50,673 nucleotides of DNA from NCBI GenBank assembly GCA_041859375.1, contig JBHEKP010000150.1, positions 1 to 50,673 of the forward strand, read 5' to 3'. Each line of letters opens with the position of its first letter. The first letter of the stretch is position 1. This document shows, one piece after another, positions 3,084-48,830 of this stretch. The translations under genes and the position numbers were made by a program. This DNA comes from Candidatus Hydrogenedentales bacterium. Its GTDB lineage: Bacteria > Hydrogenedentota > Hydrogenedentia > Hydrogenedentales > CAITNO01. The notes beneath the pieces are model-generated. The model ran no database searches, was not told where the DNA came from, and was given only the letters and a program-made list of their open reading frames with translations.

Positions 3084-3102
3084 AATAAACTCCTTTCCTC
3101 TA

Positions 3103-8447: not shown

Positions 8448-8674
8448 CGCGTGCCAATCATACCCCCAAAACGCCTTTCTCGTGGCCGCAAAGGACAATC
8501 TTCCCGACTCGGTCTGTTAAAATATACAGGCAGACATCAAAACATGTCCAAGACTCCCGCCCAAACAGCCTACTTCTGCCGTATATGGCGGTTAAAAAGG
8601 GTTGATTTTTTGAAAAAGACATGGTATCCTACAATCGGTTCAGTTAAGAAAATCAACTTAAAGGAGGAAGTTAC

Positions 8675-9340: not shown

Positions 9341-9450
9341 ACTATATCATACTTTGTTTTTTTGTATGGGATAAGTGTGTTCTTATTCAATCGTACAATT
9401 TGCTCGCAATAATTTATGTCAAGGTTGAGACAGAGTGGGAGGTGTTGAAA

Positions 9451-10839
9451 ATGAAATACTTTATTATATCATTTTTAATTCTAGCTACAAATATTAAATT
9501 AGCTAATGCAGAAAATAATAATAATGACGCATCAAATTCCTACGAATACTCTCAAACATCAATAAAAAACAAATTAGAAGCGCTTAAAACAAACAGTAAC
9601 ACGGATGATATTATTGAGATTATAAATATTGGAAAAAAACTTGAAATTATGGGGGATGATATATTAGCAACAGAATGTTTTGAGACCGTTGCAGTTTATG
9701 GTAAAAATCATATCGCTTATCGCTTTTTAGCTGCGGAAGCTGCAATAAATTTAGTGCTTTCTATGGGCTCAAATAGTTATTATCGCGCATCAAATTTACT
9801 TGAATTGGAAGTCTCATTAGCTCCTGAATTGCTAGCAAAGACACCAAAAAATATCAATAATGAAGGGTCAAAAATTAATATATTAGCCTGTTGTCCTGAT
9901 ATTCTTAGGGCAGAGATTATGGTGAAAACACAAAATTACTATTTGGCAATTCCCCTGCTTGAAAATATAATTTCAAATTATGATGACACACTAGGTAGAC
10001 TTGATAAAAAAACATTGCTTAATACAGGAATAGAGGAAAATGAGATATATGTTTGGCTTATTTTATGTTATGTAGATAATATTAAAAACAACAATTACGA
10101 TCGTAATAAAAACGAAAATAACTATGAAAATATATATAAAATTTTACTTAAATATATAGAAAATAGCAATAAGGACAACGGGCTTGATAGTCGCATTGTT
10201 GATAACATACCAGTGTTGTTAAATATATTTAAAGGGCCAGATGGGATTAAAAAAATTGAACAAATAATTCAAGTGGCTGGATTAAGTCGTGCGAAAATGT
10301 TGATGATTTTATTGGTATATCCAGATGAAGAGGCTCGCAAATTAAACACTACTGGTGAGGAAATGGATATTGCATACAAGCAATATTTATGTCTAGTAGA
10401 AAATTGTTTTGAAAACGAATCAAAAAAAGAATATTTAGTCGATTTTAATTTTTCTCGATTAAGAAATGCTATGCGAAAAGCAAAAAATCGTGAATTAGCA
10501 GATTTAATTATTAAGGACATTATTGAGATATTTCCCCTTTCGGAAGATCAAATGATAACTTTTTCTAGCCTCCAAATAGAATACGTTAATACGTTTTTAG
10601 ATGGTAAAATTAAAGATTTGCCTTTTGCGGAAATTGCAGTTGCAGCCAAAAAACTCCTTCCAAAACAAGAAAATGGGTTAAATGAGAATGGTACAATCAA
10701 GAACAATTTAAGCGGCAATAATGTGAATAATTACATCAATGATAGCAATTTTACTAAGCAGACATATATATGGGTAATTGTATTTTTTATTGGAATGCTT
10801 ATAGTTTTCATTGCATATATTATTCGAAAGCACAAGTGA
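9451..10839 (+). CDS. Hypothetical secreted helical-repeat protein with C-terminal membrane anchor
   Basis: Start at ATG 9451 after GGGAGG. Signal peptide [20 protein letters not shown] and C-terminal [22 protein letters not shown] followed by RKHK. Composition is Asn/Lys/Ile-rich. Confidence 0.7.
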
Positions 10840-12554
10840 TGCTTCCTTATCAAATAAACATAAATAATATTTTATTAACACCATATTTCTTTTCAATAAT
10901 ATTCGCTTTTGGTTTTGGTTATTTGTTGTTAATGGCGATTTCTAGAAAAATATACAATATTAAAAATATTGATGTATATTTTTTGTTTTTTGTATTTGTC
11001 GTCGCAATGGTGTTTTCGCATATTTATTGGTGTATTGAATATGGTGCTAATATTTTTTCATTAAATGTATTTAATTTATTTTCTCCTGGGCATGTATTTT
11101 ATGGTGGTCTATGTGGAGGGGTAGTTGCTTCTTATTTCTACGCCCGAATAAAAGGAATAAGATTTTTAACTTTATTAGATATGCTGGCTATCCCTACAGC
11201 TATTGGGTATGCAATCGTTCGCATTGGATGTTTTTTTACAGGGTGTTGTTATGGAAGAGAAACTGATTGTATATTTGGGGTTTCGTATCCTCCATTTGTA
11301 AAGGGTCCATATGCGCTGCAAGTGCATTATGGGAAGATTACGGTCCTATCTGACCATTCTATGCCTGTTCATCCATCACCCCTCTATTTATCGCTTGGAA
11401 GTATAATAATCGCTATTTATCTATCATATTGTACATTTAAAAAATGTTATCAAAGTGGTGAAATTGTAAAGAAATATATCATATTGTATGGCATCTTGCG
11501 CTTTTTTGTAGAATTTACTCGACAGAATGTCGGGAGTTTTTATATGTGGGGGATGTCCGGGGCTCAGTTCATATCACTCGGAATTATTTTTATTCCCATA
11601 TTTTTATCTTATATAGGCACCTGCCAATTTATATGGCAAAAGGGCATAAGAAAAAATAAAAATAATTCTAATGGTTTTTCTCTTGTTGAACTTCTTGTAG
11701 TAGTTGGCGTTTTGATCATGCTCGCCTCGTTGCTGTTACCGGCTCTTTCCAGCGCACAAGAGGCTTCAAGGCGATCTAGTTGTCAGAATAATTTGCGCCA
11801 ATGGGGAATGGCTTTTAAGATGTATAGTTCAGAGGCAAGAGGAGGATATTATCCTCCTATACAGTTAGAAATGACCGATCTTCGTAAAGGTGCTCTCGCA
11901 ATTGCTCCTAAACTAGATTCGATTTATCCAGAGTATGTCCCCAGCCTTGATATTTTAACTTGCCCAAGTGCAACGCATAGAATTAATAAAATTGACTTAT
12001 TTCGGGATAGAGGAAATATGGATCGATGTTATGCATATTTGGGATGGGTGTTAGACAAATGCGAAGAGAGTGGTCCGCGTATGACAGTACGTGAATTACT
12101 CGATTTAATTCCTTTTGTGGATTCAGATTTATATCAAGGCGAGCTAGAGGGACCTCGGCAATTCGTCCTACTTTGCGCTGCTATAGCTAGGAGGACTATA
12201 ATAGAATCTATATTTACATCACAGAATATTTTAGATATTAGTCGCAGGGTTGCTGCCACTGATGTAACTGTATGGGAATCTGACATTGGCAATGGAAATA
12301 CAAGCACCATTTTCCATATTAAGGAAGGAGTTGAACGATTCGCAGAGTTGGCCGAGAGCAACGTGTGGGTTATGTTTGACGCAATCTCTTCCGATGTGAA
12401 TCGTTTCAACCACGCTGTAGGTGGTGTGAATGTACTATATATGGACGGGCATGTTGAGTTATTACGATATCCAAGCAGGGCGCCTGTGAATAAAGGGATG
12501 GCATTATTTTTAGGAACTATTCTTGATAGACACTGGCTTCCGGAGTCTGAATAG
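10839..12554 (+). CDS. Fusion protein: Lgt-like (prolipoprotein diacylglyceryl transferase family) membrane domain + prepilin-type pseudopilin with H-X9-DG-like C-terminal motif
   Basis: The start overlaps the upstream stop (TGATG). The N-terminal half has Lgt-family motifs ([39 protein letters not shown]). At 11673/11676 there is a prepilin cleavage/methylation site [32 protein letters not shown], then [16 protein letters not shown] and [16 protein letters not shown]. Confidence 0.75.
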
Positions 12555-18040: not shown

Positions 18041-19183
18041 TTATTTCGCCGCGCCGCCGTCGCGGGCGTCTTTGTGGTCCAGGAAACAGCATCCGGGGCA
18101 CATGGCGAAGAGCTTTTTCTGGCAGGTCTGGCGGAATCCGCGCATCACCATGCCGTTCCATATTTCCCTGAGGCTCTGTTCGCGCACGTTGCCGACCTTC
18201 ACGATCCAGCAGGGGTAGGCGTTGCCCTGCCTGCCGATGATGAGGGTGTTCCAGGCGTTGCGGCACTCGTAGTTCTTCAGGTTGATGCCCGTGTCGTAGT
18301 AGGCGATGAGTTCGCTCCGGGGCATGCGCGGCAGGCGCAGCTCGATGCCCGCGTCGCGCGCGGCCGCCTCGGTGCGGTCCAGCGCTTCGGCCAGCGCCTT
18401 CGGGTCAATGCGCGGCCAGTTGATGTCCGTGGTGCTGAAGGAGGCGGGATCCACCTCCCCGAGGCCGGGCAAGTCGTGCATGCGCGTTTCCGTCACGAGG
18501 TTCAGCACGTCCGCACCGGACCCGGCGATCACCGCCGGCATGTGGTGAAGGACGTCCACGTTGTCCTTCTGGATGACCGTGGTGACGTGAATCATGGGGC
18601 AGGCCCTGCCGGAGGCGTCGCGGTGCTTCCGCAGCATGCGGATGCCGGACATGGACCTTTCGAAGGCGCCGCGCAGCCGCCGTATCTCGTCGTGCCGGTC
18701 TCCCGGCCCCTCAAGGGAGGTGCCGGCGAAATTGAAGCCGAGTCCGCCGATGCGCCGCGGCGCCAGGGCCACCACGGCCTCCGCCCGGTCCTCCGGCAGC
18801 ATGGTTGTGTTCGACACGAAATGGGTGCGCGCCCGCGACGAGGCGTGGGTGAGCAGTTCCATGAAATCTTTGCGCACAAAGGGCTCGCCGCCGGTGAAGG
18901 TGATGAGGCTGAAGCGCTGCACCTGGTCAATCACCCGGTGCCATTCCTCCGTGGACAGCTCACCCTCCATCTGTTTCCGGGTCGGCACGTTTTCAAGAAA
19001 GTCAATGTACTGGCACATCTTGCAGCGCAGGTTGCAGCGGCGCGTCACCTCGAAATAGTAGTGCCAGGCGGGAAAGGCGTAGCCGGAGCGCATGTATTTG
19101 TACGGCACGGCGCTGTACATGCGCTGGGCCCACTCATAGAGGCTGGAAATGTGCAACAGGCCCTTGTCGGCTCGTTTTTGCAT
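18041..19183 (-). CDS. Radical SAM enzyme with C-terminal SPASM/twitch-like Cys cluster
   Basis: CNLRCKMC (CxxxCxxC) follows YYFEVTRR. The C-terminal cysteines are ECRNAW...GNAYPCW...QTCQKKLFAMCPGCCF. Confidence 0.85.
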   Translation of the reverse strand: MQKRADKGLLHISSLYEWAQRMYSAVPYKYMRSGYAFPAWHYYFEVTRRCNLRCKMCQYIDFLENVPTRKQMEGELSTEEWHRVIDQVQRFSLITFTGGEPFVRKDFMELLTHASSRARTHFVSNTTMLPEDRAEAVVALAPRRIGGLGFNFAGTSLEGPGDRHDEIRRLRGAFERSMSGIRMLRKHRDASGRACPMIHVTTVIQKDNVDVLHHMPAVIAGSGADVLNLVTETRMHDLPGLGEVDPASFSTTDINWPRIDPKALAEALDRTEAAARDAGIELRLPRMPRSELIAYYDTGINLKNYECRNAWNTLIIGRQGNAYPCWIVKVGNVREQSLREIWNGMVMRGFRQTCQKKLFAMCPGCCFLDHKDARDGGAAK

Positions 19184-19768
19184 GGCGCTCTTTCAAAAAA
19201 GGAAACCCGGGATGGGGCGCGTTAGGGAACAGCCCCTTCCGGCGGGGCTATTCCATGGCCTGTATTGTACACGCGCGCCGCCCCGCCGCTCCATCCTTCC
19301 CCACCGGGGCAGGCGCGCCGTTGTGGACAACAACGCACGCATATATGAAATAAACAAAAAATGCGAATATGGCGCGCAAAAAAAACGATGACCAGCCGTT
19401 TCCACTAATATTTTTGTTGAAAAAAAGTTGTTTACAACCTATGATTTGACTAGAGCACAGCACTTATTTTGAATGGGCCGTGTTTCCACACAACCCATAT
19501 TCAATTTTTTTTGTCCTTATGTTTTTTGAGGCGCACATCAGTCGGCCTTGCAACGCACAAGGAAAACCGTGGTGAAAAAATGGATGGCGTGCACCGGGGG
19601 GGAAGCGGCGCTTTTTCCCAACCGCCACGCATCCACCCCCTCCACCCCCGTCCTTTCCCGCCATCGAATCCCCTCCCTTGGTTTCCAACAACGAACGGGC
19701 CGCACACTGGCCCGGAGTTGCGCGGTATTTTCCCGCACCCGTTCCGATCAAAAGGAGAATGCGAACTA

Positions 19769-22700
19769 ATGCAAACATCCACCACTTCCCCGGCCGCACG
19801 ATTCTTCGGAGTTTCCCTTGCCGCGGCCGGAATGATGCTGTGCGCTTTTCTTTGCGCCACAGGCGCGCAGGCCGCCACGCTTGACGACCTGTACAAAAAC
19901 AGCGGCTCCCCCTCGCTGGGCAGGGTGGTTCTCGCCCCGGGAGACTGGGTGACCATCAACACGAGGAATGCCGGCGGCGCCAACCCGACCTTTGTGGTCA
20001 ACGGCACAACAACATACACGGGTGTTGCGATAAATTACGGCCAGGGTGAAGTGGCCGTTTTTTATTTCGATCACCTCAACGTCCCCGAAGGTGTTGACAT
20101 CACGGTCACCGGCACCCGCCCCCTGTCCATCGTGTCCGACAATGACATGGTGTGGGGTGCCTCCGTGCTCGTGCCCGCCGGACAGCTTGGCGGCGGCGCG
20201 GGCGGCGCGGGCCGGGCGGGCGGCGGCGGCGGCGCGGGCGGCGGCGGCGGCGCGGGTGGCCGGGGCGGTTCGGGCGGCGGCGGCGGCGGCGGCGGCAACC
20301 GGGTTGGCGGCGGGAACACCACGGGCGGCGCGGGCGGCCGGGGCAGCGCGGGGCTGGACGGTGTTTCAGGCGGCGCGGGCAATTCGGGCGGCACAGGCGT
20401 GCAGGGGTTTGCCGGCGGGGCCGGATTCGGCGGAACGCCCGCGCCTGCGGGCGGCGCGGGCGGCGGCAGCGGGTCCGGCCTGGACGGCGGACTCCGGGGC
20501 ACCGGCGGCCCCCAGACGGGCTTGACGGCCGGGGGTATTCTTACAGCGGACGAACTCCATGTGCCGGTGGACACCGGCTTTTTGGGCATCACGCTTCATG
20601 CGTATATCCGGGTCGGCCTGGGTGGTTCGGACGGCACCAGCAATCCGGGCAACGCGGGCAGTCCGGGCAATGACGGCCTGGCGGGCCAGTCCGGCGGCCA
20701 GGGTGCGGCGGCAGAGTATGACAACACCGGTTTGGCGGACACGCTGACGCTGGCGGCGGGTTCGGGCGGCGCGGGTGGCGGCGGCGGCGGCGGCGGTGCG
20801 GGCGGTGCGGGCGGCGGCGGCGGTGGCGGCGGTTCGGGTGGTGCGGGCGGCGGCGGCGGCGCCGGTTCAACAATCAGTGTTTCCGGACTGGACTGGCTTA
20901 TTGATCTGTTTTTTGGCGGCCGCGACATCGCCGGGTCGGGCGGCGGCGGCGGCGGTTCCGGTGCGGGCTGTTCGGGCGGTTCGGCGGGCGCGGCGGGCGC
21001 GGCGGGCGGCCAGGGAAGGATGAAGAAGAATGCCTCTCCGGGCAACGGCGGCGCGGGCGCCGGGGCCAATGGCGGCGGTGGCGGCGGCGCGGCGTCTCCG
21101 GGGGGAAGCGGCGCGGCGGGCGGCGGCGGTGTCGGCGGCACGGCGGGCGCGGGCGGCACGGGTGGTTCGGGTGGTTCGGGCGGTTCGGGCGGCGCTGGCG
21201 GCGGCTCCTTTGTGCTTGCGGCGCGCGGCGTGCTTCAAATCATCGGCGCGCCGATTTTTGACGTTTCATCCACCGGCGGAACGACGGGCGCCGGCGGCAA
21301 CAACGGCGCGGCGGGCGCGGGCGGCACGGCGGGCAGCTCGGGCGGCGCGGGCGGCGCCGGACCTTCAATTATCATAGAAAACGGCACCATTGCCGGGCTT
21401 CTTGGGTCAAACGCGAGCCTTTTGAGCAAGGGCGGCAACGGCGGTGACGGCGGCAAGGGCGGCACGGGCGGCGCGGGCGGCCGGGGCGGCAAGGGCGGCA
21501 CGGGCGGCGCGGGCGGCCTGGGGGTGCCGGGCATGGTCAAGCTCCAGGGCTCCATCATCCTTGTGGACGATCAGGCCACCGTGGCGGCCAACAACGTGAA
21601 CGGCGCCACCGCCGCGAAACGGAACGGCTTCTTTTCGCGCATTTCGAACATGGGGCAGCAGCTGTTGTCGGACAACGTTCCCGCGTTCGACGCGCCCAAC
21701 ATCAACCGGGGCGTGCTGACCAACCCCACGGCGATCCAGGGCCCGAACTCCTTCGACGCCGATCCGGGCCATCCCTTCATCGGCGAGCTTCGCAACAGCA
21801 ACCAGGCCCTGCCTTACCGCATGGCGGACACGGAGGGCTTCCTGGACACGGCGGGCGGATTCTGGAACCAGGCCGAGATAATCCCCGGACAGTTCCCGAA
21901 CCTCCGCAACGTGGAAATCGCCCGTGTTTCCGGCATATTCAACGGTTACGATCAGATTTATGTGAGAAACAGAAGCGCCGTCACGGCAAACGGCGTGATG
22001 CTCAACGTTGACGGCGTGGCGACGCCGCTGCCGCCCGAGCCGGGCTCCTCGGTTCCGGGGAGCATGTCCCCCGGCAGCGTGTTCACCACGACGGTGGCCA
22101 GCACGGTTTCCTATGTGGGTCTTGGCGCGGGCGTGATGACCTTCGCGCCGCCCGTTTCCAGGACGGCGACGGTCAACAGCACCGTCGCCCTCTCCGTGAC
22201 GGTCACCCAGAGCAACGGCACCCCGACCTACAGGTGGCAGTATTACAACCCGGACACGGGCCTTTGGGTGAACTACACGGGCGCGAACGCAAACACCCGC
22301 GCCATCAGCTATGATGTTGACTGCGCGCCGCTTTACGAGACGGACCGGTTCCGGTGCGTCATCGAGGACAACACCCAGCAGGTCATTGCGGGCCCGGCCA
22401 CGATCACCTATGTGGACGTGCCGATAACCTTCAACTCCCAGGCGGGCCCGGTGGGGATCAGGGTGGGCGACACGCCGCCCCCGATAATGGTGGACGCGCA
22501 GGGCGGAAACGCCATGACCTATTACGGCCCCCCCGGCAATTTTGACTTCCAGTGGGAGCGCCTCAACCCGGTGAGCAACCTTTGGGAGCCGCTCGCCTCG
22601 AACCCCGGCAATTACACGGCCGCGGGCGACCAGTTGAGCCTTGCCAACGCCCAGCTTTCCGACAGCGGCTCCTTCCGCTGCGTGGTTTATGACGCGCCCT

Positions 22701-25700
22701 TCCCGGGGTGCAAGGTGTCGCCGCCGGTGGCGACCGGCGTTTACCTGATCACCGTGTACGACAACCTCGCGATCCGCACCCAGCCCCAGGGGCAGACGGC
22801 GCATCTGGGCCAGGACTTCCTGCTCTCGGTGGATGTTCCGGAGACGCTGAGGAACATCACCTACACGTGGGAAAAATTCACCGGCACCCCGCCGGCGTCG
22901 GGATGTCCCGACCCGCTTTCCCCGAACTGGGCCCCCGTTCCCGGGGCGTCCGGCACGCCGAAGCACATGATGGCCGCCGAAACCGCCACCGACGGCTACT
23001 ACCGCGTGACGCTGGCGGATCCGCTGGGGAGCGTGGTGCGCTCGGACTGCGCCCGCATGACGGCGCTCCCCTTTGCCCTTTCGCGCGAGCCGGAGGATCT
23101 GTACGCGTACACGGCCGCGGTCCCGCCGCAAATCGAGGTGGTGGCGGAGGACGCGCGGGGCACGGTTGAGTACCAGTGGTTCCGGGTCGGCGCGAAGGCG
23201 CAGATCCCGATTCCGGGCGCGACGGGCAGCACCCTGTCCTTTGCGTCCCCGACGGTGGGCGAGGAAACCTACCAGTGCCGGGTGGTTGACAACACCGGCG
23301 CGCCCTCGCCCGAGGAAATATGGACCCGCCCGGCGAAGGTCCGCGTGGCGAAGCCCTTCACGCTGCTGCAGGGTCTTCAGGACGATCTTGCCGCCGCCGA
23401 GGGCCAGCCGAAGACCTTTGCCGTGCAAACCGAGGGAGGCCTGGACGTGCATTACCAGTGGAGCAGGGATGGCCAGCCCATCACGACGCCGGACGCGCCC
23501 GTTTACACCATCCCCTCGGTTTCACTGGAGGACGCCGGCATCTATTCCGTCCTGGTCACCTATCGGGGCGGATCCGTCTCGTCGTCGGCGAACCTTCAGG
23601 TCAGCGGCGGGGTGCCCGCGGCGTCGCCGTGGGGCCTTTGCGCGCTGGCGGCGCTGGTCGCCTGTGCCGCGGCGTGGCTTCTTTGCCGCCGCCCGTCACG
23701 GCGCGCGCTGCTGCCGCTGCTGCTGGCGGGCCTGATGCTCGCCGCCTCGCCGGCGGGCGCGCAGACCGCGCCGGACTTTGACAAGGTGCTGCTCGATCTC
23801 AAGGCGGTGCTGAGCAACCTGTTCACGGTGAACGGCACGGACACGTGGAGCGGCGGCGCCTCGCCCATCTACCAGCGGGTGCAGGGGCAGTCGGGCTTCG
23901 TCGGGTACGATCTGAGCCTTGCGAAGCACGGTGGCAACGGCATAGACAGCGACGACTACTTCTCGCTGGTCGAGACGATCGTGAACACGAGCCAGACGTG
24001 CACGCCGCCCCTGAACACGGTGAACCCGAGCATCATCCCGAACATCCGGTCGGCCTACTGGGTTTCGCGGAACCAGGTCAGGAACCTCGAGCTGACATTG
24101 CGCAACCTGAACGTGCACATTAACAACCTGTCGATATCGGGCATGAACTTCTCCAACCTCGACATTCTCGTTCCGTCCATCACGACGGGCCAGGAGAACA
24201 CACTTCTTGGCTTCCCGGTGGACATTCCCAGCCTCTGGACCAACAAGTACCCGGCGGGCAGTTCGGGCCTGCTGGCGGACGCGGTTGAGCTTCAGGGTCT
24301 TACGGACGCGAACGGGAACCCGGTGGTGTACGACCTTGAGAACTGCCTGATGGACGTGGGCGCGGCGGTCATGACCACGGGCGACGAGGCGGCCATCAAC
24401 TGGTACCGCGGCCTTGTGGGCAACCTCTGCAACGGCATCATCCAGAACGTGGTGCCCAAGCTGCTTGAGGGCATCGCGGGGAAGTCGCTCGACAAGGGGC
24501 TCACCGAGTCGCAGCAGAAGAGCGTGGCCGATCAGCTTTACGCGGCGTCCATCGCGGGCTCGGTGTACGTGGTGTCGGACTGTGCCGGCTGCGAAAAGCA
24601 GGACAAGGCCCTTTACGTGATGACGGGGTGCTCGACACAGGTCATCAACGTTAACATCAACGAGCCGGGGACCGTTGTGAACGGATCCGTCACGATCAAC
24701 GGCGCGGATCTCTGCACCTCCCTGAACGAGGCCATCGGCCAGTTTGCCTGCGGCGCCTATCCCTGCCAGACGGCCCGCCTGGCGTCCACGGGTGATTTGA
24801 ACATGGACGGCCGGACCAACCGCGCCTCCTACGCCCTTGTGTCGGGCGCGCGCGGCGCCTGGTTTGAGGCCGAGGCGGCGGACTTCCCGGAGATTAATGT
24901 CCAGAACTGGCCGGCCCAGCCGGTCAACCCGACCTTCCTGGGGACCATCCCGATGGCGGTTGACGTGGACCACACCCGCGCGGGCGCGCCCAACTACCGG
25001 TTCAGGCTCTACAGGCGCGCCACGCCCGCCGAGCCCTGGGTGCAGGTTGACACCTCGTCCGGTTCATACAACACTTCGACGGGGGTGTACTCCTTCAGCC
25101 TTGACGTGAACTGGCTCCAGGAGCGCCAGTTCCTGTGGACCGTTGAGACCGGCTGCGGCACGGGCCTGAAGCAGTCGCAGGTGTACGCGATCAACGTGCC
25201 CGCGCCCGCCATCACCTTCAACCCGGCGCTGCCCGCGGCGCAGTGCGTGCGCGAGAACGATCCCTTCAGCTTCACGGTTTCGGCGACGTGCCCGCAGGGC
25301 AGCCTGTCGTACCAGTGGCAGCAGGACAGCGGCGCGGGCTGGGCCAATGTGGCCGGGGCGACGGGCCTCACCCTGAGCAGGCCCCAGGCCTCTGCGCAGA
25401 CCCACGCGGGCGTGTACCGCTGCGTGGTGACGAACACCCTCAGCTACCCCGGGGGTTCGGCCTCGTACTCTGCGTTTTCGCCCACGGCCAAGCTGAGCGT
25501 CCTGTATTACCACACCCAGCCGGGCCAGTTTGTCTCGGTCCTGATGGGCACGGGATTCTCCCTGTCGGTGCGTCCGGCGGGCGGCAACGTGGCCTACCCC
25601 GTTCCGTTCTCCGTCCCCGACGCGCAGTACCTGCCCCAGTACACCTACCAGTGGTATCTCAACGATGTGCTGATTCCGGCGGCGTCCAACGCCACGGCGG

Positions 25701-27127
25701 TCACGCCCCGCCTTGTTGTCGCCGCGGCCACCGCGGGCGACGCGGGCGACTACCACTGCGTCATCCGCGACGGCTGCGTCCCCGTGGGATACGGCTTCAC
25801 GCCGAAGACAAAGGTCACCGTCACGGACAGCCCCATCATCATCCCCGATGACGGGCAGCCGGTTGGCGGCGGCCGCCTTGTGGGCGGTGATCCGAAGGGA
25901 TTCCGGGTGGTCGCCACGGGCGGCGAACCGGGACAGCCGCTGACCTGCGAGTGGTACCGGGCGGTGGACGCGGTGGGCAACGGCGCGGTGCTGGTGGCCC
26001 CGCAGGCCGACATGTCGGACATCGGCGGCGGGTTCTTCGAGTCCGTCTTTACCATCAACACGCTTCCTGCGCTGTCGGACACGGGCTACTACTTTGCCAA
26101 GCTGTCCGACGGGCTTCAGGTGGTCGCGTCCATCCCCGCGCCCTACTTTGTGGGCACGCCCCTGACGGTGGTCACCCCGCCGGTGGGGGGGGCCTTCCAC
26201 CACACGACGGAGCACGATCCGGTGCTTTCGGTCGAGATGTCGGGCGGCGTGGGTGCGCTCACCTATGCGTGGTACCGGAACGGCCAGCCCCTTGAGGTCA
26301 ACTCGCCCACCTACAACCTGACCCCCCTTGCGGGCCATGACACCGGCACCTATGAGGTCCGGGTGCGCGACATGGGCACGGGCGACGGGCCGCTTTACGC
26401 CCTGACGCCCACGTATGAGGGGCCGGGCGGGGTGTATGTGTCGCCCCCGGTGCAGATGTCGGTGGCGCCGGAGCTGCTCATGGAGCCGTCGGGCCAGCCC
26501 AAACACCAAACCGGCCCGGTGGGCGGCAGCTACACCTTCAGCGTGGCCACCATGGGCGGCGCGACGCCGCTGGGTTACCAGTGGTTCCGCCGCGCGGGCG
26601 GCGCGGGCACCGACGTCCCCGTGGGCAACGCGCCCTCCTTTACGGTGCCGAGCGCCGGATTGAACGACCAGGGGTTGTACTACTGCGTCATCACGGACCA
26701 GCTTGGCGGTCCCGAGGGGTCGATCACCACGGTGGGCGGCCGCCTGACCCTTGTGGGCACCGACGCCCCGTCGGAGCTGACCATCCTTGTCCAGCCGCAG
26801 GATGTTTCCGTCCAGGAGGGCGGCGACCTGGTCCTGAGCGTGCTGGCGGGCGGCGGCCAGACCACGAACTACACCTTCTCCTGGACCAGAAACGGCCAGC
26901 CCGTTGCCGGCGCCGACGAGGGCGCGCTTCTCATCACACCGGCGACCGGGGATGATGGGGGCGTCTACCGGGTCACGGTGTGCGCGGGTTTGGAGTGTGT
27001 GGAGAGCGCCGCCGCCGTGGTCACCGTCGGCGAGCCGGTGCCCCTGGCCGGCGGCCTTGGCCTTGCGGCCCTGGCCTTGCTGGCCGCGCTGGGCGGGGCC
27101 TCCTCGCTGCGGCGCCCCCGGCGCTGA
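19769..27127 (+). CDS. Giant (2452 aa) glycine-rich, Ig-repeat surface protein with internal and terminal PEP-CTERM-like sorting signals
   Basis: Start at ATG 19769 after AGGAG, with signal peptide MQTSTTSPAARFFGVSLAAAGMMLCAFLCATGAQA. GGxGG tracts span ~20170..21540. Ig-like repeats (YQW...DxGxYxC) span ~22135..23600 and ~25200..27040. The C-terminus is EPVPLAGGLGLAALALLAALGGASSLRRPRR. Confidence 0.85.
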   Translation: MQTSTTSPAARFFGVSLAAAGMMLCAFLCATGAQAATLDDLYKNSGSPSLGRVVLAPGDWVTINTRNAGGANPTFVVNGTTTYTGVAINYGQGEVAVFYFDHLNVPEGVDITVTGTRPLSIVSDNDMVWGASVLVPAGQLGGGAGGAGRAGGGGGAGGGGGAGGRGGSGGGGGGGGNRVGGGNTTGGAGGRGSAGLDGVSGGAGNSGGTGVQGFAGGAGFGGTPAPAGGAGGGSGSGLDGGLRGTGGPQTGLTAGGILTADELHVPVDTGFLGITLHAYIRVGLGGSDGTSNPGNAGSPGNDGLAGQSGGQGAAAEYDNTGLADTLTLAAGSGGAGGGGGGGGAGGAGGGGGGGGSGGAGGGGGAGSTISVSGLDWLIDLFFGGRDIAGSGGGGGGSGAGCSGGSAGAAGAAGGQGRMKKNASPGNGGAGAGANGGGGGGAASPGGSGAAGGGGVGGTAGAGGTGGSGGSGGSGGAGGGSFVLAARGVLQIIGAPIFDVSSTGGTTGAGGNNGAAGAGGTAGSSGGAGGAGPSIIIENGTIAGLLGSNASLLSKGGNGGDGGKGGTGGAGGRGGKGGTGGAGGLGVPGMVKLQGSIILVDDQATVAANNVNGATAAKRNGFFSRISNMGQQLLSDNVPAFDAPNINRGVLTNPTAIQGPNSFDADPGHPFIGELRNSNQALPYRMADTEGFLDTAGGFWNQAEIIPGQFPNLRNVEIARVSGIFNGYDQIYVRNRSAVTANGVMLNVDGVATPLPPEPGSSVPGSMSPGSVFTTTVASTVSYVGLGAGVMTFAPPVSRTATVNSTVALSVTVTQSNGTPTYRWQYYNPDTGLWVNYTGANANTRAISYDVDCAPLYETDRFRCVIEDNTQQVIAGPATITYVDVPITFNSQAGPVGIRVGDTPPPIMVDAQGGNAMTYYGPPGNFDFQWERLNPVSNLWEPLASNPGNYTAAGDQLSLANAQLSDSGSFRCVVYDAPFPGCKVSPPVATGVYLITVYDNLAIRTQPQGQTAHLGQDFLLSVDVPETLRNITYTWEKFTGTPPASGCPDPLSPNWAPVPGASGTPKHMMAAETATDGYYRVTLADPLGSVVRSDCARMTALPFALSREPEDLYAYTAAVPPQIEVVAEDARGTVEYQWFRVGAKAQIPIPGATGSTLSFASPTVGEETYQCRVVDNTGAPSPEEIWTRPAKVRVAKPFTLLQGLQDDLAAAEGQPKTFAVQTEGGLDVHYQWSRDGQPITTPDAPVYTIPSVSLEDAGIYSVLVTYRGGSVSSSANLQVSGGVPAASPWGLCALAALVACAAAWLLCRRPSRRALLPLLLAGLMLAASPAGAQTAPDFDKVLLDLKAVLSNLFTVNGTDTWSGGASPIYQRVQGQSGFVGYDLSLAKHGGNGIDSDDYFSLVETIVNTSQTCTPPLNTVNPSIIPNIRSAYWVSRNQVRNLELTLRNLNVHINNLSISGMNFSNLDILVPSITTGQENTLLGFPVDIPSLWTNKYPAGSSGLLADAVELQGLTDANGNPVVYDLENCLMDVGAAVMTTGDEAAINWYRGLVGNLCNGIIQNVVPKLLEGIAGKSLDKGLTESQQKSVADQLYAASIAGSVYVVSDCAGCEKQDKALYVMTGCSTQVINVNINEPGTVVNGSVTINGADLCTSLNEAIGQFACGAYPCQTARLASTGDLNMDGRTNRASYALVSGARGAWFEAEAADFPEINVQNWPAQPVNPTFLGTIPMAVDVDHTRAGAPNYRFRLYRRATPAEPWVQVDTSSGSYNTSTGVYSFSLDVNWLQERQFLWTVETGCGTGLKQSQVYAINVPAPAITFNPALPAAQCVRENDPFSFTVSATCPQGSLSYQWQQDSGAGWANVAGATGLTLSRPQASAQTHAGVYRCVVTNTLSYPGGSASYSAFSPTAKLSVLYYHTQPGQFVSVLMGTGFSLSVRPAGGNVAYPVPFSVPDAQYLPQYTYQWYLNDVLIPAASNATAVTPRLVVAAATAGDAGDYHCVIRDGCVPVGYGFTPKTKVTVTDSPIIIPDDGQPVGGGRLVGGDPKGFRVVATGGEPGQPLTCEWYRAVDAVGNGAVLVAPQADMSDIGGGFFESVFTINTLPALSDTGYYFAKLSDGLQVVASIPAPYFVGTPLTVVTPPVGGAFHHTTEHDPVLSVEMSGGVGALTYAWYRNGQPLEVNSPTYNLTPLAGHDTGTYEVRVRDMGTGDGPLYALTPTYEGPGGVYVSPPVQMSVAPELLMEPSGQPKHQTGPVGGSYTFSVATMGGATPLGYQWFRRAGGAGTDVPVGNAPSFTVPSAGLNDQGLYYCVITDQLGGPEGSITTVGGRLTLVGTDAPSELTILVQPQDVSVQEGGDLVLSVLAGGGQTTNYTFSWTRNGQPVAGADEGALLITPATGDDGGVYRVTVCAGLECVESAAAVVTVGEPVPLAGGLGLAALALLAALGGASSLRRPRR

Positions 27128-27251: not shown

Positions 27252-27335
27252 GAACACAGAGTTGAAAAAGGTCCGTTTCCAAACTGAGGGGCGTCCTCGT
27301 CGCGGCGCCCCCGGCATGATAATTAAATGGAAGAC

Positions 27336-27367
27336 GGGGCGTCCCCATCGGGGACGCCCCTGTTTTT
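27336..27367 (+). terminator. Intrinsic terminator inside the leader of gene 27417 (attenuator candidate)
   Basis: GGGGCGTCCCC-atc-GGGGACGCCCC (11-bp perfect stem) followed by TGTTTTTG, 50 nt upstream of the ATG. Confidence 0.6.
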
Positions 27368-27416
27368 GCATTGGCGTTATGTGTGTGAAGCACCGCAACA
27401 GGTTGGGAGTCACGGC

Positions 27417-28487
<1,071 letters not shown>

Positions 28488-28534
28488 CCATGGGCGCCCT
28501 CATCCAGGATTCAACCCCGTCAGGGAGCATGATT

Positions 28535-31500
28535 ATGAGCCATCAGACAATGAAACGGAGCCGGTTGCTGCGGTCCTATCTGTTCATCACCGCGGCGGCC
28601 CTGCTCGCCGCAACAACAGGCGGCGCGGAAGTGTTCTACTGGAGCGACTACAACTCGGGAATACCACCCGTTTGGGGTGGCACCGTGACCGGTTCAGCCG
28701 GCGCGGAGGGGGGGTATGTGCGCCTGACGAACACCGGCGGCAGCCTGCAGGGCACCTTGGTGCTGCCGAGTCCGGGGAAACCCCTGCCCACGTATAACTT
28801 CTACGCGGACATCTTTATCGGCGGCGGCTCCAATCCGGGGGCGGATGGAATGTGCATTGGCTATGGGAACTACGCCGCCAACGCGAATTTCGGGGAGCAG
28901 GGCATGGGCACCGGTCTTGAACTTCGCATTGTCACGTACACCACCCGCCAGATGCGGCTGTGTTACAACGGGGCGGTCATTGCCCAATGGGCTTTCGCGG
29001 ACGGCGACATCCACACGAACTCGTGGGTTCCCATCCAGATCATGATGACGGCGGACGGGCGCTGCACGGTCTACCACAACCGCACGCTTCGCCTCGGCCC
29101 GGTGGCTATTCCCGGCTGGGCCCCCCAAAGCGCGTGGCGGGTGGCCGTGGGCGCCCGCACGGGCGGCAACGTTGACAACCACCGCGTGGACAATGTGCGG
29201 GTGACCACCTCCGAACCTTTTGTGACCTCCATTAACCGGGCCAGCGCCAACCCCGTGGGCGGGGCCACCTCCTCCGTGAACTACACGGTCACGCTTTCGG
29301 AGCCGGTGAACAATCTCGGCACGGCGGATTTCAACCTGACCCAGGTCAGCGGCACGCCCACCGCGGTCATCGCCTCCGTGTCGGCCGCCTCTGTGAACGC
29401 TTCGGAGGCGTTCACCACCGCCGGTTCGGGCGGCATCGGCACGCTTGCCGGACTCGCCACCGTCTCAGGCGGTGTTTTGCACCTGACCGAGGCGACGAAC
29501 GGCCAGGCCGGCTGGTGGTATCACAACCCGGGAAAGGCCATGACGGCGTTCCATGCGACATTCAGTCTTCGCGTCGGCGGCGGAAGCAGCGCGGACGGCT
29601 GCTGGTTCGGCTATGGCCCGCAGGACACTTCGGGTGTTGACGGCTCGACCACGGGCTTCTATGTCGTGTTTGACAGTTACGACAACGGCGGCGAGACAAC
29701 CCCGGACATCACCGTGAGGCACAACAACAACACCTACGCCGTTGCACGGAGGGATTTCCGCGGGGACGTGTACAAAAACGTTTCGGTCACCGTGACGACC
29801 GACGGCTTGTGCACCGTGATACACGACGGGACGCCCATTTTCGTTGACCTTCCCATAGGCACCTATACCCCCCAGGCATCATGGCGTTTTGGTTTTGGCG
29901 GGTTCACGGGCGGGGCCAACGACCGCCATTACATTGACAATTATGCCGTGACGGACAACGCGCACACCGTCACGCTGAACACGCTGGGCGGGCAGGGGCA
30001 GCTCCGCATGAACCTGAACGGCGCGGTGGTGCAGGACAAGTACGGCGCGAACATCACCCCGAACGCCTTCACCACGGGCCAGGCGTACGACTTTGACTTC
30101 GTCGCGCCGACGGTGACGATTAACCAGGCGGCGGCGCAGGCGGATCCGGCCTCCGCGGCGCCCATTAATTTCACCATCGTCTTCAACGAGGCCGTCAACC
30201 CGGCCACGTTCACCAATGGCGACGTGGCCATCACGGGAACGACGGGCGGCGTGAAGTCGGTGGCGCTGTCCACGTCGAACAACATCACCTGGAACGCGGC
30301 GGTGAGCGGCATGACCTCGCCGGGTGTCGTGATAGCGAACATTGCGGCAAATGCCGCCACGGATGTCCTCGGCAACAACAGCCAGGCGGCCACGTTCACC
30401 GACAACGAGGTGACCTGGGATCCGCCGATATACACGGTGACCTTTGACCCGAACCTCGGCAATCCGCCGAGCTTCCCCACAAAGGACGTGTACGCGGGCG
30501 ACCCCTACGGCACGCTGCCCACGGTGACCCGCGCGGACTGTTCCTTTAACGGCTGGTTCACCGCGCCCACGGGCGGCAGCCTTGTGACGGACGCCACCAC
30601 GGTTACGAACGCGTCGAACCACACGCTGTACGCGCAGTGGACGATTACCAGCGCCTACTGCACGGGCGGCGGCGGCGGTGCCGGCGGCGGCGGCGGCGGG
30701 GGCGGCGGCGGTCGCGCCGGTATGGCGGCCGGGGGCGGGGGCGGTTCTGCGGGGACGGCCGGCGCGGACGGCGCCGGGCAGGTTTCCCCGCCGTCGGCGG
30801 GCCTGGCCGGTTCCACCGGCGCGGCGGGCGCGAACGGCGTGATGTATGGTCTCGGCTGGACGGCGGCCCCCGCCGGCGGGTCCAGCGCAGGCGGCGGCGC
30901 GGGCGGCGCAGGCGGTGTTGGCGGCGCTGGCGGCGCAGGCGGCACGGGCGCGCTGGGCGCAGGCGGCGGCGGCTCCTTTGTGCTTTCGGCCAAGGGCCTG
31001 CTTCGCATCACGGGCCCCGCGCTTCTTGACGTTTCGGCGGCCCCCGCGGTTCTCGGCGGCGCTGGCGGCAACGCGCAGCCCGCGGGTCTTGGCATGGCGG
31101 GCCAGAAGGGCGGCGTCCCCGGCGCGGGCGGTGCTGCCGTCTCGGGCACGGGCAGCGGCGGCCCCAGCCAGAGCGGGAAGGGCGGCAGCTCGAAGAAATA
31201 CGGTGACGGCACCTCCGGCGGCGTTGGCGGCACGGGCGGCGCTGGCGGCATCGGCGGCGTGGGCGGCTCCGGCGGCCGGGGCGGCTTCGGCACGCCGGGC
31301 ATGGTGAAGCTTCACGGATCGGTCGTTCAGGCCTCCGCGGCCACCTTCTCTGCGCAGAACGTGTTCAGCCAGCAGGCGAACCAGAACGGTGCGTGCACGA
31401 TAGTCTCGAACATGACGGCATCGGCGCGCAACGTGAACAAGCCGACGATGGAGCAGTTTGCGACCCCGAACCAGATGCCCGTGCTTGGCGCGGCGCGCAA

Positions 31501-33658
31501 CGACGCGGTTCTGACGCGCCCGACGAACGCGCCGTACGAGACGGCCGGCACGGCGTACCCGCTGATACCCACGCTTGAGGGCGGCCCTTACACCTACGGC
31601 TGGTGCGTTTCGGACTACTGGAACAAGGCCGAGGTGGAGTCGGCGATTGCGGACAAGACGGGCCTTCGGACGGTGTTGCTGACGCAGTCGACGACCCCGG
31701 CGTCGGTGTTCGAGGGTTACAGCCAGTTTGTCATGGTCAACTACGGCGCCACGGCCCTTGACAACATCGCGGTGAAGATTGGGACGAGCAGCGCTGTGCT
31801 CATCCAGGGCGCCTCCGGCACGCCGGGCCGTCTTGAGCCCGGCCAGGCGTGGACGACGACGGTGGTTTCCGGGACGGTGGTGACGGGTGGCACCGGGGTG
31901 GCCATCACGGGCCAGCCGACGGACCAGACGGTGAACCCTGGCGCGACGGCGACGTTCACGGTCACGGCGACGGGTTCGGACATCAACTACCAGTGGCGCC
32001 GGGGCGCGGACCCGATACCGGGCGCGACGGGCCCGAGCTACTCTTTCACGGCGCAGGCATCTGACGACGGCGCGGAGTTCCGCTGCCATGTGACGAACCC
32101 TGGCGCGACGCCGCCGTACTTCAGCGAGGTGTTGTCCGATGCGGCGCGGCTTTCCGTGAACCAGCCGGTGACGATCACGACGGAGCCTGTTTCCCAGTCT
32201 GTGGCCTACCAGACGCCCGTGACGTTCACGGTTGCGGCCGGGGGCACGCCGCCCTTCAGCTACGAGTGGGAGAAGGACGGCGTTGCGCTGGTACCCGCGC
32301 AGACGGGCCCGTCGTTCACGATAGCGTCGGCGGTGGGTTCGGACGCCGGGGTGTACCGGTGCGCGGTGCGCAACGTTGTGAACCCGTCCCCCTCGGCGGC
32401 GGTTTACAGCGCCGGGGCTGCGCTGACGGTTCTTGATCCCGGGATCACGTCTAATCCGTCGGACCTGAGCCGTGTGACGGGCCAGTCGGCGGTGTTCACG
32501 GTTCTTGTGAACGGTTCCGGCGCGCTTTCGTACCAGTGGGAGAAGTCCCCCGACGGCGCGACGAACTGGACGCCGGTCGGCACGGGCGATCCCCGGATCA
32601 CGGGAGCGGACACCTACGAGCTGACGGTGAGCAACTGCGTTGGTTCGGACGCGGGCTACTACCGTGTTCAGGTGACGGGCGCGGGCGTGGCGGTTTCTGG
32701 TTCGGCGCGCCTTCAGGTGAGCGATCCCGCGATTCTCGTGGAGCCGCTGCCCCAGACGGTTGATCCCGGCCAGCCGGCGGTGTTCACGGTGACGGCGGGC
32801 GGCACGCCCCTTGGCGGGGGCGACTTTGGCTACCAGTGGTACAAGGGCACGGAGCTGGTAACCGGCGCGGTTGGCGCGACTTACACGATACCCGCGGCGG
32901 TGTGGTCTGACGCGGGCAGCTACCGCTGCCTTGTGACGGGTCTGAACGGCACGATTTACTCGAACTACGCGCCGCTTGCGGTGCGCGGCGCGCCGATAAC
33001 GCTTGATCCGCAGAAGCCCGGGGACGCGGCGGCGTACACGGGCGACACGGTGGTGCTCGAGGTGTCGGCCGGCGGCGGGTTTGGGTCCGGCGGCGCCCCT
33101 GTGTTCGGCTACCAGTGGTGGTTTGCGACGTCCAAGGCCGCGGCGCCGCTTTCCGGCGAAACCGGCCCGGTGCTGACGCTCTCGCCGGTGGGGCTTGCCG
33201 ACGCGGGCGAGTACTACTGCGTGGTGAGCGACGACTCGCCGTACCCGGCGCAGTCGCGGACGGCGTTGGTGCAGGTTGCGGAGCCGCTTGCGATCACGGT
33301 TTACCCGCAGGGCGCGTCGAAGAACGTTGGCGAGACGCACACGATGACGGTTGCGACCAGCGGCGGCCTTGGCGCGGTGACGTACACGTGGAAGAGGAAC
33401 GGGACCGTGGTGGCGTCGGGTGTGGACCTGACGAGTTACACGACGCCGCCGCTGACCTACCCGGCGTACGACAACGCGTCGTACGTGGTTGAGATCAGCG
33501 ACGAGTCGACGCGCCCCGCGCTGACGACGGCGAGCGCGCCCGCGGTGATCACGCTTTTGAACGTGGTGTTCATGCCCGCGCTGGGCATGGCGGGCCTTGG
33601 CCTGTTGGCGGCGGCGTGCGCCCTTGGCGGCGCGCGCGTTCTGCGCGGGCGCAAATAG
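28535..33658 (+). CDS. Giant (~1707 aa) surface protein: 2 lectin/LamG-like domains, Listeria-Bacteroides repeat, Gly-rich region, Ig-like array, PEP-CTERM-like anchor
   Basis: The start is ambiguous (ATG 28490, 28529, 28535 or 28550); 28535 lies 7 nt after GGGAG. Signal peptide KRSRLLRSYLFITAAALLAATTGGA. Two copies of a ...GxxxLT...G......FxxxFxxxxGGGSxADGxxxGYG lectin-like pattern. YTVTFDPNLG...FNGWFTAPTGG...YAQW lies at ~30427..30650. The Gly-rich region spans 30660..31300 and the Ig repeats ~31895..33560. The C-terminus is MPALGMAGLGLLAAACALGGARVLRGRK. Confidence 0.8.
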   Translation: MSHQTMKRSRLLRSYLFITAAALLAATTGGAEVFYWSDYNSGIPPVWGGTVTGSAGAEGGYVRLTNTGGSLQGTLVLPSPGKPLPTYNFYADIFIGGGSNPGADGMCIGYGNYAANANFGEQGMGTGLELRIVTYTTRQMRLCYNGAVIAQWAFADGDIHTNSWVPIQIMMTADGRCTVYHNRTLRLGPVAIPGWAPQSAWRVAVGARTGGNVDNHRVDNVRVTTSEPFVTSINRASANPVGGATSSVNYTVTLSEPVNNLGTADFNLTQVSGTPTAVIASVSAASVNASEAFTTAGSGGIGTLAGLATVSGGVLHLTEATNGQAGWWYHNPGKAMTAFHATFSLRVGGGSSADGCWFGYGPQDTSGVDGSTTGFYVVFDSYDNGGETTPDITVRHNNNTYAVARRDFRGDVYKNVSVTVTTDGLCTVIHDGTPIFVDLPIGTYTPQASWRFGFGGFTGGANDRHYIDNYAVTDNAHTVTLNTLGGQGQLRMNLNGAVVQDKYGANITPNAFTTGQAYDFDFVAPTVTINQAAAQADPASAAPINFTIVFNEAVNPATFTNGDVAITGTTGGVKSVALSTSNNITWNAAVSGMTSPGVVIANIAANAATDVLGNNSQAATFTDNEVTWDPPIYTVTFDPNLGNPPSFPTKDVYAGDPYGTLPTVTRADCSFNGWFTAPTGGSLVTDATTVTNASNHTLYAQWTITSAYCTGGGGGAGGGGGGGGGGRAGMAAGGGGGSAGTAGADGAGQVSPPSAGLAGSTGAAGANGVMYGLGWTAAPAGGSSAGGGAGGAGGVGGAGGAGGTGALGAGGGGSFVLSAKGLLRITGPALLDVSAAPAVLGGAGGNAQPAGLGMAGQKGGVPGAGGAAVSGTGSGGPSQSGKGGSSKKYGDGTSGGVGGTGGAGGIGGVGGSGGRGGFGTPGMVKLHGSVVQASAATFSAQNVFSQQANQNGACTIVSNMTASARNVNKPTMEQFATPNQMPVLGAARNDAVLTRPTNAPYETAGTAYPLIPTLEGGPYTYGWCVSDYWNKAEVESAIADKTGLRTVLLTQSTTPASVFEGYSQFVMVNYGATALDNIAVKIGTSSAVLIQGASGTPGRLEPGQAWTTTVVSGTVVTGGTGVAITGQPTDQTVNPGATATFTVTATGSDINYQWRRGADPIPGATGPSYSFTAQASDDGAEFRCHVTNPGATPPYFSEVLSDAARLSVNQPVTITTEPVSQSVAYQTPVTFTVAAGGTPPFSYEWEKDGVALVPAQTGPSFTIASAVGSDAGVYRCAVRNVVNPSPSAAVYSAGAALTVLDPGITSNPSDLSRVTGQSAVFTVLVNGSGALSYQWEKSPDGATNWTPVGTGDPRITGADTYELTVSNCVGSDAGYYRVQVTGAGVAVSGSARLQVSDPAILVEPLPQTVDPGQPAVFTVTAGGTPLGGGDFGYQWYKGTELVTGAVGATYTIPAAVWSDAGSYRCLVTGLNGTIYSNYAPLAVRGAPITLDPQKPGDAAAYTGDTVVLEVSAGGGFGSGGAPVFGYQWWFATSKAAAPLSGETGPVLTLSPVGLADAGEYYCVVSDDSPYPAQSRTALVQVAEPLAITVYPQGASKNVGETHTMTVATSGGLGAVTYTWKRNGTVVASGVDLTSYTTPPLTYPAYDNASYVVEISDESTRPALTTASAPAVITLLNVVFMPALGMAGLGLLAAACALGGARVLRGRK

Positions 33659-38095: not shown

Positions 38096-38197
38096 AATAG
38101 CCCCCCGGACCAGTTTGTTCCACTATTCACAGATTAGACGGCATCCCGGGGCCGCCTTTCCGCATGCAGCGGACAACATGTGAAGGATTTTTTGCAC

Positions 38198-45173: not shown

Positions 45174-45411
45174 ACGGGAAGAACCAAAGACATTGACAAA
45201 TCACAACAACCCTGATAGTTTACTGGCAAGTCGTGACAAGAGGGGGAGGTTGGCATGGCGTTGGGCCGCAAAAAAGGGAACCAGATGGTGAGAGAGGATA
45301 TTTTTACGGATGTTCGGGTTGTCAAAAGTGCATCGTATACCAACTCTGGAAGGCATTAAAACGATTTTTAGAAAACTAAATATATGCACAACGAGCAAGA
45401 AGGAAAGTTCC

Positions 45412-46311: not shown

Positions 46312-46501
46312 ATTTTCCCTGTATATGGATGTCCGGAACATGGAGGTTTACAGTGCTAAAGACATCGCCAAATTGGTGCTGCGTGCCAACGACTACCAAC
46401 TCTCGGCGCTCCTGCTGGTTCTGGAGCATGGACACCGACAGACAAGGAGAGTGTGCGGAGGAATATTGCGCAGATGAAATGCCAACACCGAGAGACATAA
46501 T

Positions 46502-48762: not shown

Positions 48763-48780
48763 CATTAGCCAAAGGGGCGG

Positions 48781-48809: not shown

Positions 48810-48830
48810 GTCAACCGAGGAGACTGTGCC

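Follow-up and report, generated by a model that had tools for sequence, protein, structure and literature searches.

A stretch of 50,673 nucleotides on contig JBHEKP010000150.1 from a Candidatus Hydrogenedentales bacterium (GenBank assembly GCA_041859375.1), hereafter referred to as the window, carries an open reading frame (ORF) encoding a giant protein of 2452 residues, in which two surface-protein modules follow one another in a single uninterrupted frame. The modules are joined by a short junction, whose first half is homologous to the C-terminal tails of related surface proteins and whose second half is homologous to the N-terminal signal peptides of stand-alone proteins, and the arrangement is conserved in relatives. 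The ORF is best explained as two complete surface proteins, each exported by Sec, whose genes have been fused in frame and kept so; processing into two products is proposed, and the junction would probably allow the cell to cut one translation product into two. An initial annotation of the window, made by a model from the sequence alone, had described the junction as an internal sorting signal immediately followed by a signal-peptide-like segment, and the present analysis follows up that description.

Residues 1282-1333 of the giant protein read VPAASP-WGLCALAALVACAAAWLLC-RRPSRR-ALLPLLLAGLMLAASPAGA/QT (here and below, a slash marks a cleavage site), with V1282 encoded from position 23612 and the codon of A1331 ending at 23761; translation confirmed both this layout and the absence of a stop codon from the junction, and the C-terminal tails of the giant protein (EPVPLAGGLGLAALALLAALGGASSLRRPRR) and of the neighbouring protein encoded at 28490-33658 (MPALGMAGLGLLAAACALGGARVLRGRK), each ending at its stop codon, are verbatim as the initial annotation had quoted them. 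Hydrophobicity was scored on a membrane-insertion free-energy scale (values of Hessa et al. 2005) in 19-residue windows, the Kyte-Doolittle scale being concordant. The four best 19-residue windows of the 2452 residues are the internal helix at 1288-1306 (-1.34, the strongest), the N-terminal signal peptide, the C-terminal helix and the signal-like segment at 1313-1331; the median for the giant protein is 16.7. Clusters of at least four Arg or Lys in seven residues are found only at 1306-1307, 1744 and 2446 in the whole protein, and two of the three sit directly after the internal helix and the C-terminal helix. A simple detector of the helix-basic loop-helix pattern, applied to 110 long ORFs and proteins, flagged only these junctions, their orthologues and true polytopic membrane proteins. 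The features of the junction go beyond chance composition, which is rejected as an explanation on these three grounds, namely the hydrophobicity ranking, the rarity of the Arg clusters and the result of the detector. Rather than an ordinary linker devoid of transmembrane propensity, the outcome that the initial annotation had set against its own proposal, the segment shows a strong propensity of this kind.

By alignment, the first half of the junction is a real tail. Seventeen tails were aligned, comprising 12 true C-terminal tails of the protein family and the internal segments of the window protein and of four relatives (L001, P0001, P0002 and P0003, introduced below). The internal tails align without gaps and in register with the true C-terminal ones, giving the consensus VPAAGxxGLxxLAAxxAxGGAxxLRRR, in which the Pro of the motif is invariant and the Gly six residues after it nearly so, while V1282 is replaced by Thr in P0002 and by Leu in P0003. 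A single Gly and a single Leu reach at least 90% conservation, both of them within the helix and not in a compact motif. A tail of the same class is also carried by the P0003 upstream module, which has no relation to module 1, and a very similar tail (LPVPGPARPWIISAALACVMAGVWALRRGRGLRRPRA, followed by the stop) ends a Big_13/Ig_3 protein that adjoins the L006 orthologue and has a different set of N-terminal domains. There are three copies of the tail in the window, and most examples come from one protein family. As a separate observation, the low-GC (guanine plus cytosine) ORF 9400-10839 (+), with a signal-peptide-like N-terminus, ends in a hydrophobic helix followed by RKHK, an AT-rich anchor tail of a different style.

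The description of the tail as PEP-CTERM-like in the initial annotation is borne out for the three-part layout and fails for the motif and the model. The Pro-Glu-Pro signature is not present, the motif being V-P-A-A-S-P in the junction and VPAAG in the consensus of the 17 tails, with no conserved Glu; against TIGR02595 (PEP-CTERM, cut-off 16 bits), the internal tail gave no hit, the C-terminal tail of the same protein scored 8.8 and the best tail of the family, from a homologue, 14.9. Scores against the IPTL-CTERM model TIGR04174 also lie below its cut-off of 20.5 bits (19.8 for the internal tail of the window, 19.8 for P0001 and 18.9 for L001). The best-scoring curated model for the segment is NF033207, midcut-by-XrtH (E 1.4e-4; residues 1258-1330 against profile positions 22-85 of 175), for which the whole protein reached 21.9 and the best orthologue 22.4 of the 45 bits required. 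An LPXTG motif is not found in the junction segment, and the LPXTG_anchor model gave no hit on the tails of the window and only 9.3 and 10.2 bits on two homologue tails, against 15.9. When the tail is compared with the criteria for tripartite sorting signals (bioRxiv 10.1101/2023.06.07.544157), the hydrophobic helix with two to five basic residues after it is present (helix 1288-1306, then RRPSRR), and carriers with signal peptides and multiple copies are seen, though mostly within one protein family; the signature motif appears weak, and the internal copy, which ends at residue 1312 of 2452, is not near the C-terminus, the copy at 2422-2452 and that of the paralogue being terminal. A gene for a large peptidase of family C25 (gingipain or PorU-like; 38180-41152, +), a possible lipoprotein with an LGAC motif, follows the genes of the tail-bearing proteins at a distance of 11 kb and recurs on three other contigs (L010-L012). 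It was not adopted as a candidate for the sorting enzyme, since only its catalytic part matches the model of PorU, the sortase of the type IX secretion system (76 versus 420 bits), and it is absent beside the L001 and L006 orthologues.

The second half of the junction is, again by alignment, a real signal peptide. Some 25 proteins homologous to the module 2 head domain stand alone and open with an ordinary N-terminal signal peptide followed by A/Q, their phmmer alignments beginning at query residues 53-77, which pair with residues 4-30 of the matched protein. The internal segments share alignment columns with these signal peptides and the cleavage sites coincide, with Ala invariant at -1 and Gln nearly invariant at +1, while the Arg cluster of the tail occupies the columns of the stand-alone Met-Lys/Arg n-region; the alignment thus agrees with the initial annotation, in which the segment was an h-region and an AxA site with the Arg cluster serving as n-region. 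The parts expected for Sec and signal peptidase I are all present (n-region RRPSRR, core ALLPLLLAGLMLAA, c-region SPAGA/Q). From the last charged residue to -1 there are 18-20 residues, equal to the stand-alone signal peptides, the hydrophobic core has 12-14 residues, and in the window, L001, L006 and P0003 the predicted cut is preceded, at a distance of about 4-6 residues, by a Pro or Gly. Ala occupies -3 and -1 in all fused sequences and -2 is variable; within the clade of the window protein, -2 is G, R, Q and Q, and members that are not identical differ from one another at 8-12 of the 19 positions. The pattern of the AxA/Q site looks like that expected of a signal peptidase I site still under selection.

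Continuity of the ORF was examined in relatives. An exhaustive phmmer search with residues 1260-1800 as query gave 30 homologue clusters, three of which carry the matched region internally, and all three (P0001, 1902 residues, 61% identity to the query; P0002, 2477 residues, 51%; P0003, 2267 residues, 37%) have the same junction. Scans of public contigs added further copies, and a continuous ORF runs through the junction in all of them, namely in a different assembly (L005, JADHEF010000104.1; 99.5% identity), on a contig of a metagenome-assembled genome labelled 'uncultured Nitrospirales' (L001; 69%) and on two Joint Genome Institute (JGI) metagenome contigs (L006 and L007; 58% each); these four contigs and one database protein (about 50%) make up five other distinct orthologous sequences that are uninterrupted at the junction. 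Single high-scoring segment pairs of about 1,970-1,980 residues span the junction in tblastn comparisons with L001 and L005, and the gene on L006 is full-length, with 2460 residues from the first start codon and 2468 from stop to stop. Whether the orthologues have one gene or two, as the initial annotation had asked, is thus answered in favour of one, no stop codon being found between the modules in the orthologues or in independent assemblies; the orthologous stop that it had listed against its proposal is therefore absent. Five of the 21 amino-acid differences between near-identical strains (the window and L005; L006 and L007) over about 1,800 residues fall within the 50-residue junction, where Cys1306 of the window is Arg in L005; these substitutions preserve charge, hydrophobicity and AxA/Q, and spare -3, -1 and +1. 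Fast sequence change with the class retained is typical of signal peptides and anchors. A positively charged loop of 6-10 residues is retained in all orthologues. On these comparisons the fusion is judged to be old and stably maintained, because the junction persists down to about 47-51% identity (P0002). Exact-sequence look-ups gave no database record for the giant protein or for its paralogue at 28490-33658, a word-indexed protein search with the junction and the head domain as query gave nothing at E <= 0.001, and the same type of search with module 1 gave only four weak matches (E 1e-18 to 9e-7, 23-34% identity), which bear immunoglobulin (Ig)-type domains. The genes flanking the orthologues are not conserved, showing no synteny, and the contigs that bear the right-hand part of the window come from wastewater and other metagenomes.

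Both halves of the fusion exist separately. Residues 481-1264 of module 1 are paralogous to residues 830-1580 of the stand-alone protein encoded at 28490-33658, whose like tail meets a stop codon, and proteins of the module 2 type are mostly stand-alone; therefore, two types of gene have been joined. Since the tail and the signal peptide each align with true counterparts as well, there is good support for the claim in the initial annotation that two surface-protein genes were joined by a membrane hairpin. In P0003 the module ahead of the junction is not similar to module 1 (E >= 1), and its first 1,086 residues contain no Pfam domain; the domain after the junction is 45-46% identical over about 400 residues, or 62% over 150, to stand-alone proteins versus 32% to the window clade. 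Neighbour-joining places P0003 outside the window clade, which has 100% bootstrap support, and, with weak support, among the stand-alone proteins. The simplest reading of these data is that the fusion probably arose twice independently.

In the fused protein, the signal peptide of module 1 leads into a Gly-rich region and Ig-like repeats, and the module closes with an anchor tail in three parts (VP motif, helix and Arg cluster); module 2 has a signal peptide, the head domain, Ig-like repeats and a tail of the same type. Neither a stop codon nor intergenic DNA nor a start codon is left between the two, so that the Arg cluster of the first tail also serves as the n-region of the second signal peptide. 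The following course of events is proposed. Export of module 1 would be initiated by the N-terminal signal peptide and halted by the helix at 1288-1306, leaving RRPSRR in the cytoplasm according to the positive-inside rule; the segment 1313-1331 would then re-enter the translocon in the manner of a signal peptide and restart export, now of module 2. A cut by signal peptidase I at AGA/Q, after A1331, would free module 2 as a separate chain, to be held by its own C-terminal tail, which would stop transfer again, while module 1 would remain held by the first tail and the leftover signal peptide. Both tails may then be cut at their VP motif by a putative sorting enzyme, in the way expected of ordinary C-terminal copies. 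One ORF would in this way give rise to two proteins in a 1:1 ratio, each anchored or released on its own.

That the single ORF is an artefact of assembly or sequencing, which masks a stop codon or a frameshift between two ordinary genes, is hardly credible and has been largely refuted. The gene contains long glycine-rich and GC-rich repeats, and at least three other assemblies break within it upstream of the junction (L001, L005 and L007 all begin in its Gly-rich region); however, the junction itself is non-repetitive, its frame is kept in the five other distinct sequences, which come from separate records and assemblies at four levels of divergence, and the alternative frames stop at 23735 and 23781, neither of them yielding a sensible gene end or start. 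The two in-frame start codons of the segment, GTG at 23612 and ATG at 23735, could in principle allow module 2 to be made also, or instead, from an internal translation start. This is very improbable, because neither codon is preceded by a Shine-Dalgarno-like or AT-rich region, unlike the true start and as the initial annotation had held, and because M1323 is not conserved, its column holding Leu in L001, L006, L007 and P0002. Initiation at M1323 would, moreover, leave only MLAASPAGA, too short for a signal peptide, before a domain that is exported in every homologue, and the Val encoded by the GTG is replaced in P0002 and P0003, as mentioned above.

A weightier alternative is a permanent, uncut hairpin of two helices, which would make the product a single membrane protein with three helices and two large extracytoplasmic lobes, the AxA site being a vestige of the signal peptide from which it descends. 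Anchors with two transmembrane segments are known, a weak match to TIGR02226, an N-terminal double-transmembrane domain, was obtained below threshold (15.3 versus 23.05 bits), and the fusion and the hairpin topology would fit this reading equally well, the cleavage being predicted from the sequence. A relic should, however, drift, yet the substitutions clustered in the junction spare -3, -1 and +1, Ala at -3 and -1 is invariant beside a variable -2 across sequences that are 47-69% identical, and the distance from the last charge to -1 is still that of stand-alone signal peptides. The uncut hairpin is considered unlikely because the second segment has kept the length of a signal peptide and a canonical -3/-1 site after long divergence. 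Several points nevertheless weigh against a processed fusion. Its topology is derived from hydropathy, the positive-inside rule and homology, both cleavages are predicted, and the junction region is Ala-rich, so that a conserved AxA carries a little less weight. Since the tail falls short of every curated model of a sorting signal, it may be a plain membrane anchor; Pfam and NCBIfam scans found no exosortase, rhomboid or rhombosortase, CPBP protease or sortase among the ORFs of the window or beside the L001 and L006 orthologues, so that the exosortase-like gene for which the initial annotation had suggested a search did not turn up there. That annotation had also taken the fused genes to have been adjacent, a part of its claim that drew no support, as the pre-fusion pair of a tail-bearing gene immediately upstream of a module-2-type gene was not found at any stand-alone locus, and the placement of P0003 in the tree is weakly supported (54% and 26%). 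The processed fusion of two exported surface proteins remains the preferred interpretation, with moderate confidence. Its fullest form, in which these are true Sec-dependent polyproteins that couple a mid-chain tail acting as stop-transfer to a cleavable internal signal peptide, yield two giant, separately sorted proteins, arose at least twice and were kept by selection, is given slightly less than an even chance.

The features of the giant gene and of its neighbouring paralogue are listed in Table 1. Translation shows the frame 19469-27127 to be free of stop codons throughout, and the third-position GC of the giant ORF is 0.85 versus 0.59-0.66 in the long overlapping ORFs of the opposite strand. 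The ATG at 19769, which is preceded by AAAGGAGAA, is the likely start, and the L006 orthologue has an equivalent N-terminal signal peptide followed by ATLDDLY. Pfam matches in module 1 are to Ig_3, Ig_2 and I-set. Directly upstream of the giant gene and divergent from it lies a radical SAM/SPASM maturase-like gene (18041-19183, -), with no evident link to the giant gene.

Table 1. Features of the fused ORF and of the tail of its neighbouring paralogue, in window coordinates
Feature	Position	Strand	Residues and remarks
Whole ORF	19769..27127	+	2452 residues plus stop; two surface-protein modules fused; frame uninterrupted
N-terminal signal peptide (MQTST...GAQA/A)	19769..19873	+	1-35, ends AQA/A; hydrophobic peak 12-30
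Module 1	19874..23611	+	36-1281: N-terminal domain, glycine-rich region, conserved middle region, Ig-like repeats
Tail signature motif VPAASP	23612..23629	+	1282-1287; matches [VL]P[AV] of 12 C-terminal tails
Internal transmembrane helix WGLCALAALVACAAAWLLC	23630..23686	+	1288-1306; proposed stop-transfer; top hydrophobic 19-mer of the protein
Arg cluster RRPSRR	23687..23704	+	1307-1312; end of tail and n-region of next signal peptide; putative cytoplasmic loop
Internal signal-peptide h- and c-regions ALLPLLLAGLMLAASPAGA	23705..23761	+	1313-1331; predicted signal peptidase I site AGA/Q between 23761 and 23762
Module 2 head domain	23762..24901	+	about 1332-1711; 30 homologue clusters, no Pfam match
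Module 2 Ig-like repeat array	24902..27031	+	about 1712-2421; Pfam Ig_3, I-set, BiPBP_C
C-terminal tail EPVPLAGGLGLAALALLAALGGASSLRRPRR	27032..27124	+	2422-2452
C-terminal tail of neighbouring paralogue MPALGMAGLGLLAAACALGGARVLRGRK	33572..33655	+	tail of the 1722-residue protein 28490-33658; same tail family

The head domain of module 2, of about 380 residues, represents a family of large exported proteins that fall into about 30 clusters (P0004-P0030 among them), with a conserved acidic DNDGNGIDDDDHF-like motif and several conserved Cys. It has no match in Pfam. An AlphaFold2 model of moderate confidence (predicted local distance difference test 74, predicted template modelling score 0.73) gave nothing at E <= 0.001 in a Foldseek search against the PDB, the weak matches (E >= 0.12) being antibody variable domains aligned over about 75-125 columns, which corresponds in size to one Ig-like domain.

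The ORF 27327-28487 (+) resembles the N-terminal part of module 1 (signal peptide, N-domain and Gly-rich region) and, after a long poly-Gly run, ends at a stop codon; the ORF 28490-33658 (+) begins two bases later with its own signal peptide and extra domains, followed by the part homologous to residues 481-1264 of module 1. The pair suggests that a cassette bearing a signal peptide was inserted into a module-1-type gene and divided it in two. In L005 the ORF matches reach 99-100% for both, with the same spacing. A second in-frame fusion with an internal targeting signal is seen in the ORF 10770-12554 (+), where an Lgt domain (residues 29-279) is directly followed by a prepilin-type leader with N-methylation motif and then by DUF1559, the GC content climbing along the ORF. 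Low-GC blocks at 3000-4300, 8600-12500 and 45300-47350 (27-40% GC in a genome of about 68%) contain ORFs without Pfam match, except for Lgt. The high-GC genes around the ORF 45310-46311 accompany it in at least three further assemblies (L010-L012), so that a chimeric assembly does not account for the low-GC island at this ORF, which is real and perhaps of foreign origin. An HTH_3/peptidase M78 gene (48690-49895) lies downstream of murB in the window, in place of the PhoU_div and PHO4 genes of the otherwise syntenic L010 (13394-15062), which looks like strain-level variation in gene content. Scans of the window for tRNA genes and Rfam families were empty.

If the cleavages occur, the giant protein would be a natural bacterial polyprotein, by which two giant surface proteins are delivered in a fixed 1:1 ratio to the same place with the general secretion machinery alone. 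It would likewise serve as a natural test of whether a sorting tail of the C-terminal type works away from the C-terminus, and thereby constrain the mechanism of the enzyme acting on this class of tail, which, if the proposal is true, would need no free C-terminus. Annotation rules restricted to the termini would miss similar proteins; pipelines confine the search for signal peptides to N-termini and that for sorting tails to C-termini, and the giant protein would therefore be misdescribed, as perhaps would others like it. The weight of the finding is limited because an arrangement with this order was put forward earlier for the Zmp proteases of streptococci, and because the processing is here predicted from sequence.

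A literature search turned up neither midcut-by-XrtH nor IPTL-CTERM, nor a usable paper about polyproteins of bacteria with internal signal peptides. A single ORF that is split at an internal signal peptide after a transmembrane segment is represented by the FbcH cytochrome b/c1 precursor of Bradyrhizobium japonicum and by viral polyproteins processed by signal peptidase, such as those of flaviviruses, which join subunits of one complex or viral structural proteins. Neither is known to pair the sorting tail of a surface protein with an internal signal peptide. The closest precedent is the N-terminus of the streptococcal Zmp/IgA1 proteases, where a signal peptide, a sorting motif away from the C-terminus, a hydrophobic helix and a second hydrophobic segment follow one another in the same order; the second segment has been proposed to be a second signal peptide with a second signal-peptidase site, and the unusual position of the motif is reportedly required for correct localisation. 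The order of elements is all that is common to the two systems, which have no sequence homology: the Zmp proteases have an LPXTG motif, a sortase and a Gram-positive wall, whereas the giant protein has a VP-type tail, with no enzyme found, in an uncultured bacterium. In Zmp the motif follows the first signal peptide almost at once, whereas in the giant ORF a complete surface protein of 1,250 residues intervenes; the giant ORF would therefore give two large products and not one re-anchored protease.

The name of NF033207, 'midcut-by-XrtH', likewise indicates a sorting-type signal cut in mid-protein; its profile is 175 positions long and therefore models small proteins, unlike the giant multi-domain protein of the window, where no exosortase was found. 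With the IPTL-CTERM, PEP-CTERM and related tripartite signals (Haft; bioRxiv 10.1101/2023.06.07.544157; PMC1569441) the junction tail shares the Pro-containing motif, the transmembrane helix and the Arg cluster, as well as carriers with N-terminal signal peptides and, judging by the three copies in the window, several copies per genome, but it differs from them in scores under the cut-off, in a motif without Glu and in an internal copy that lies 1,140 residues from the C-terminus. Relative to these precedents, the complete giant surface protein upstream of the junction, the different and unassigned class of the tail and the recurrence of the fusion are new.

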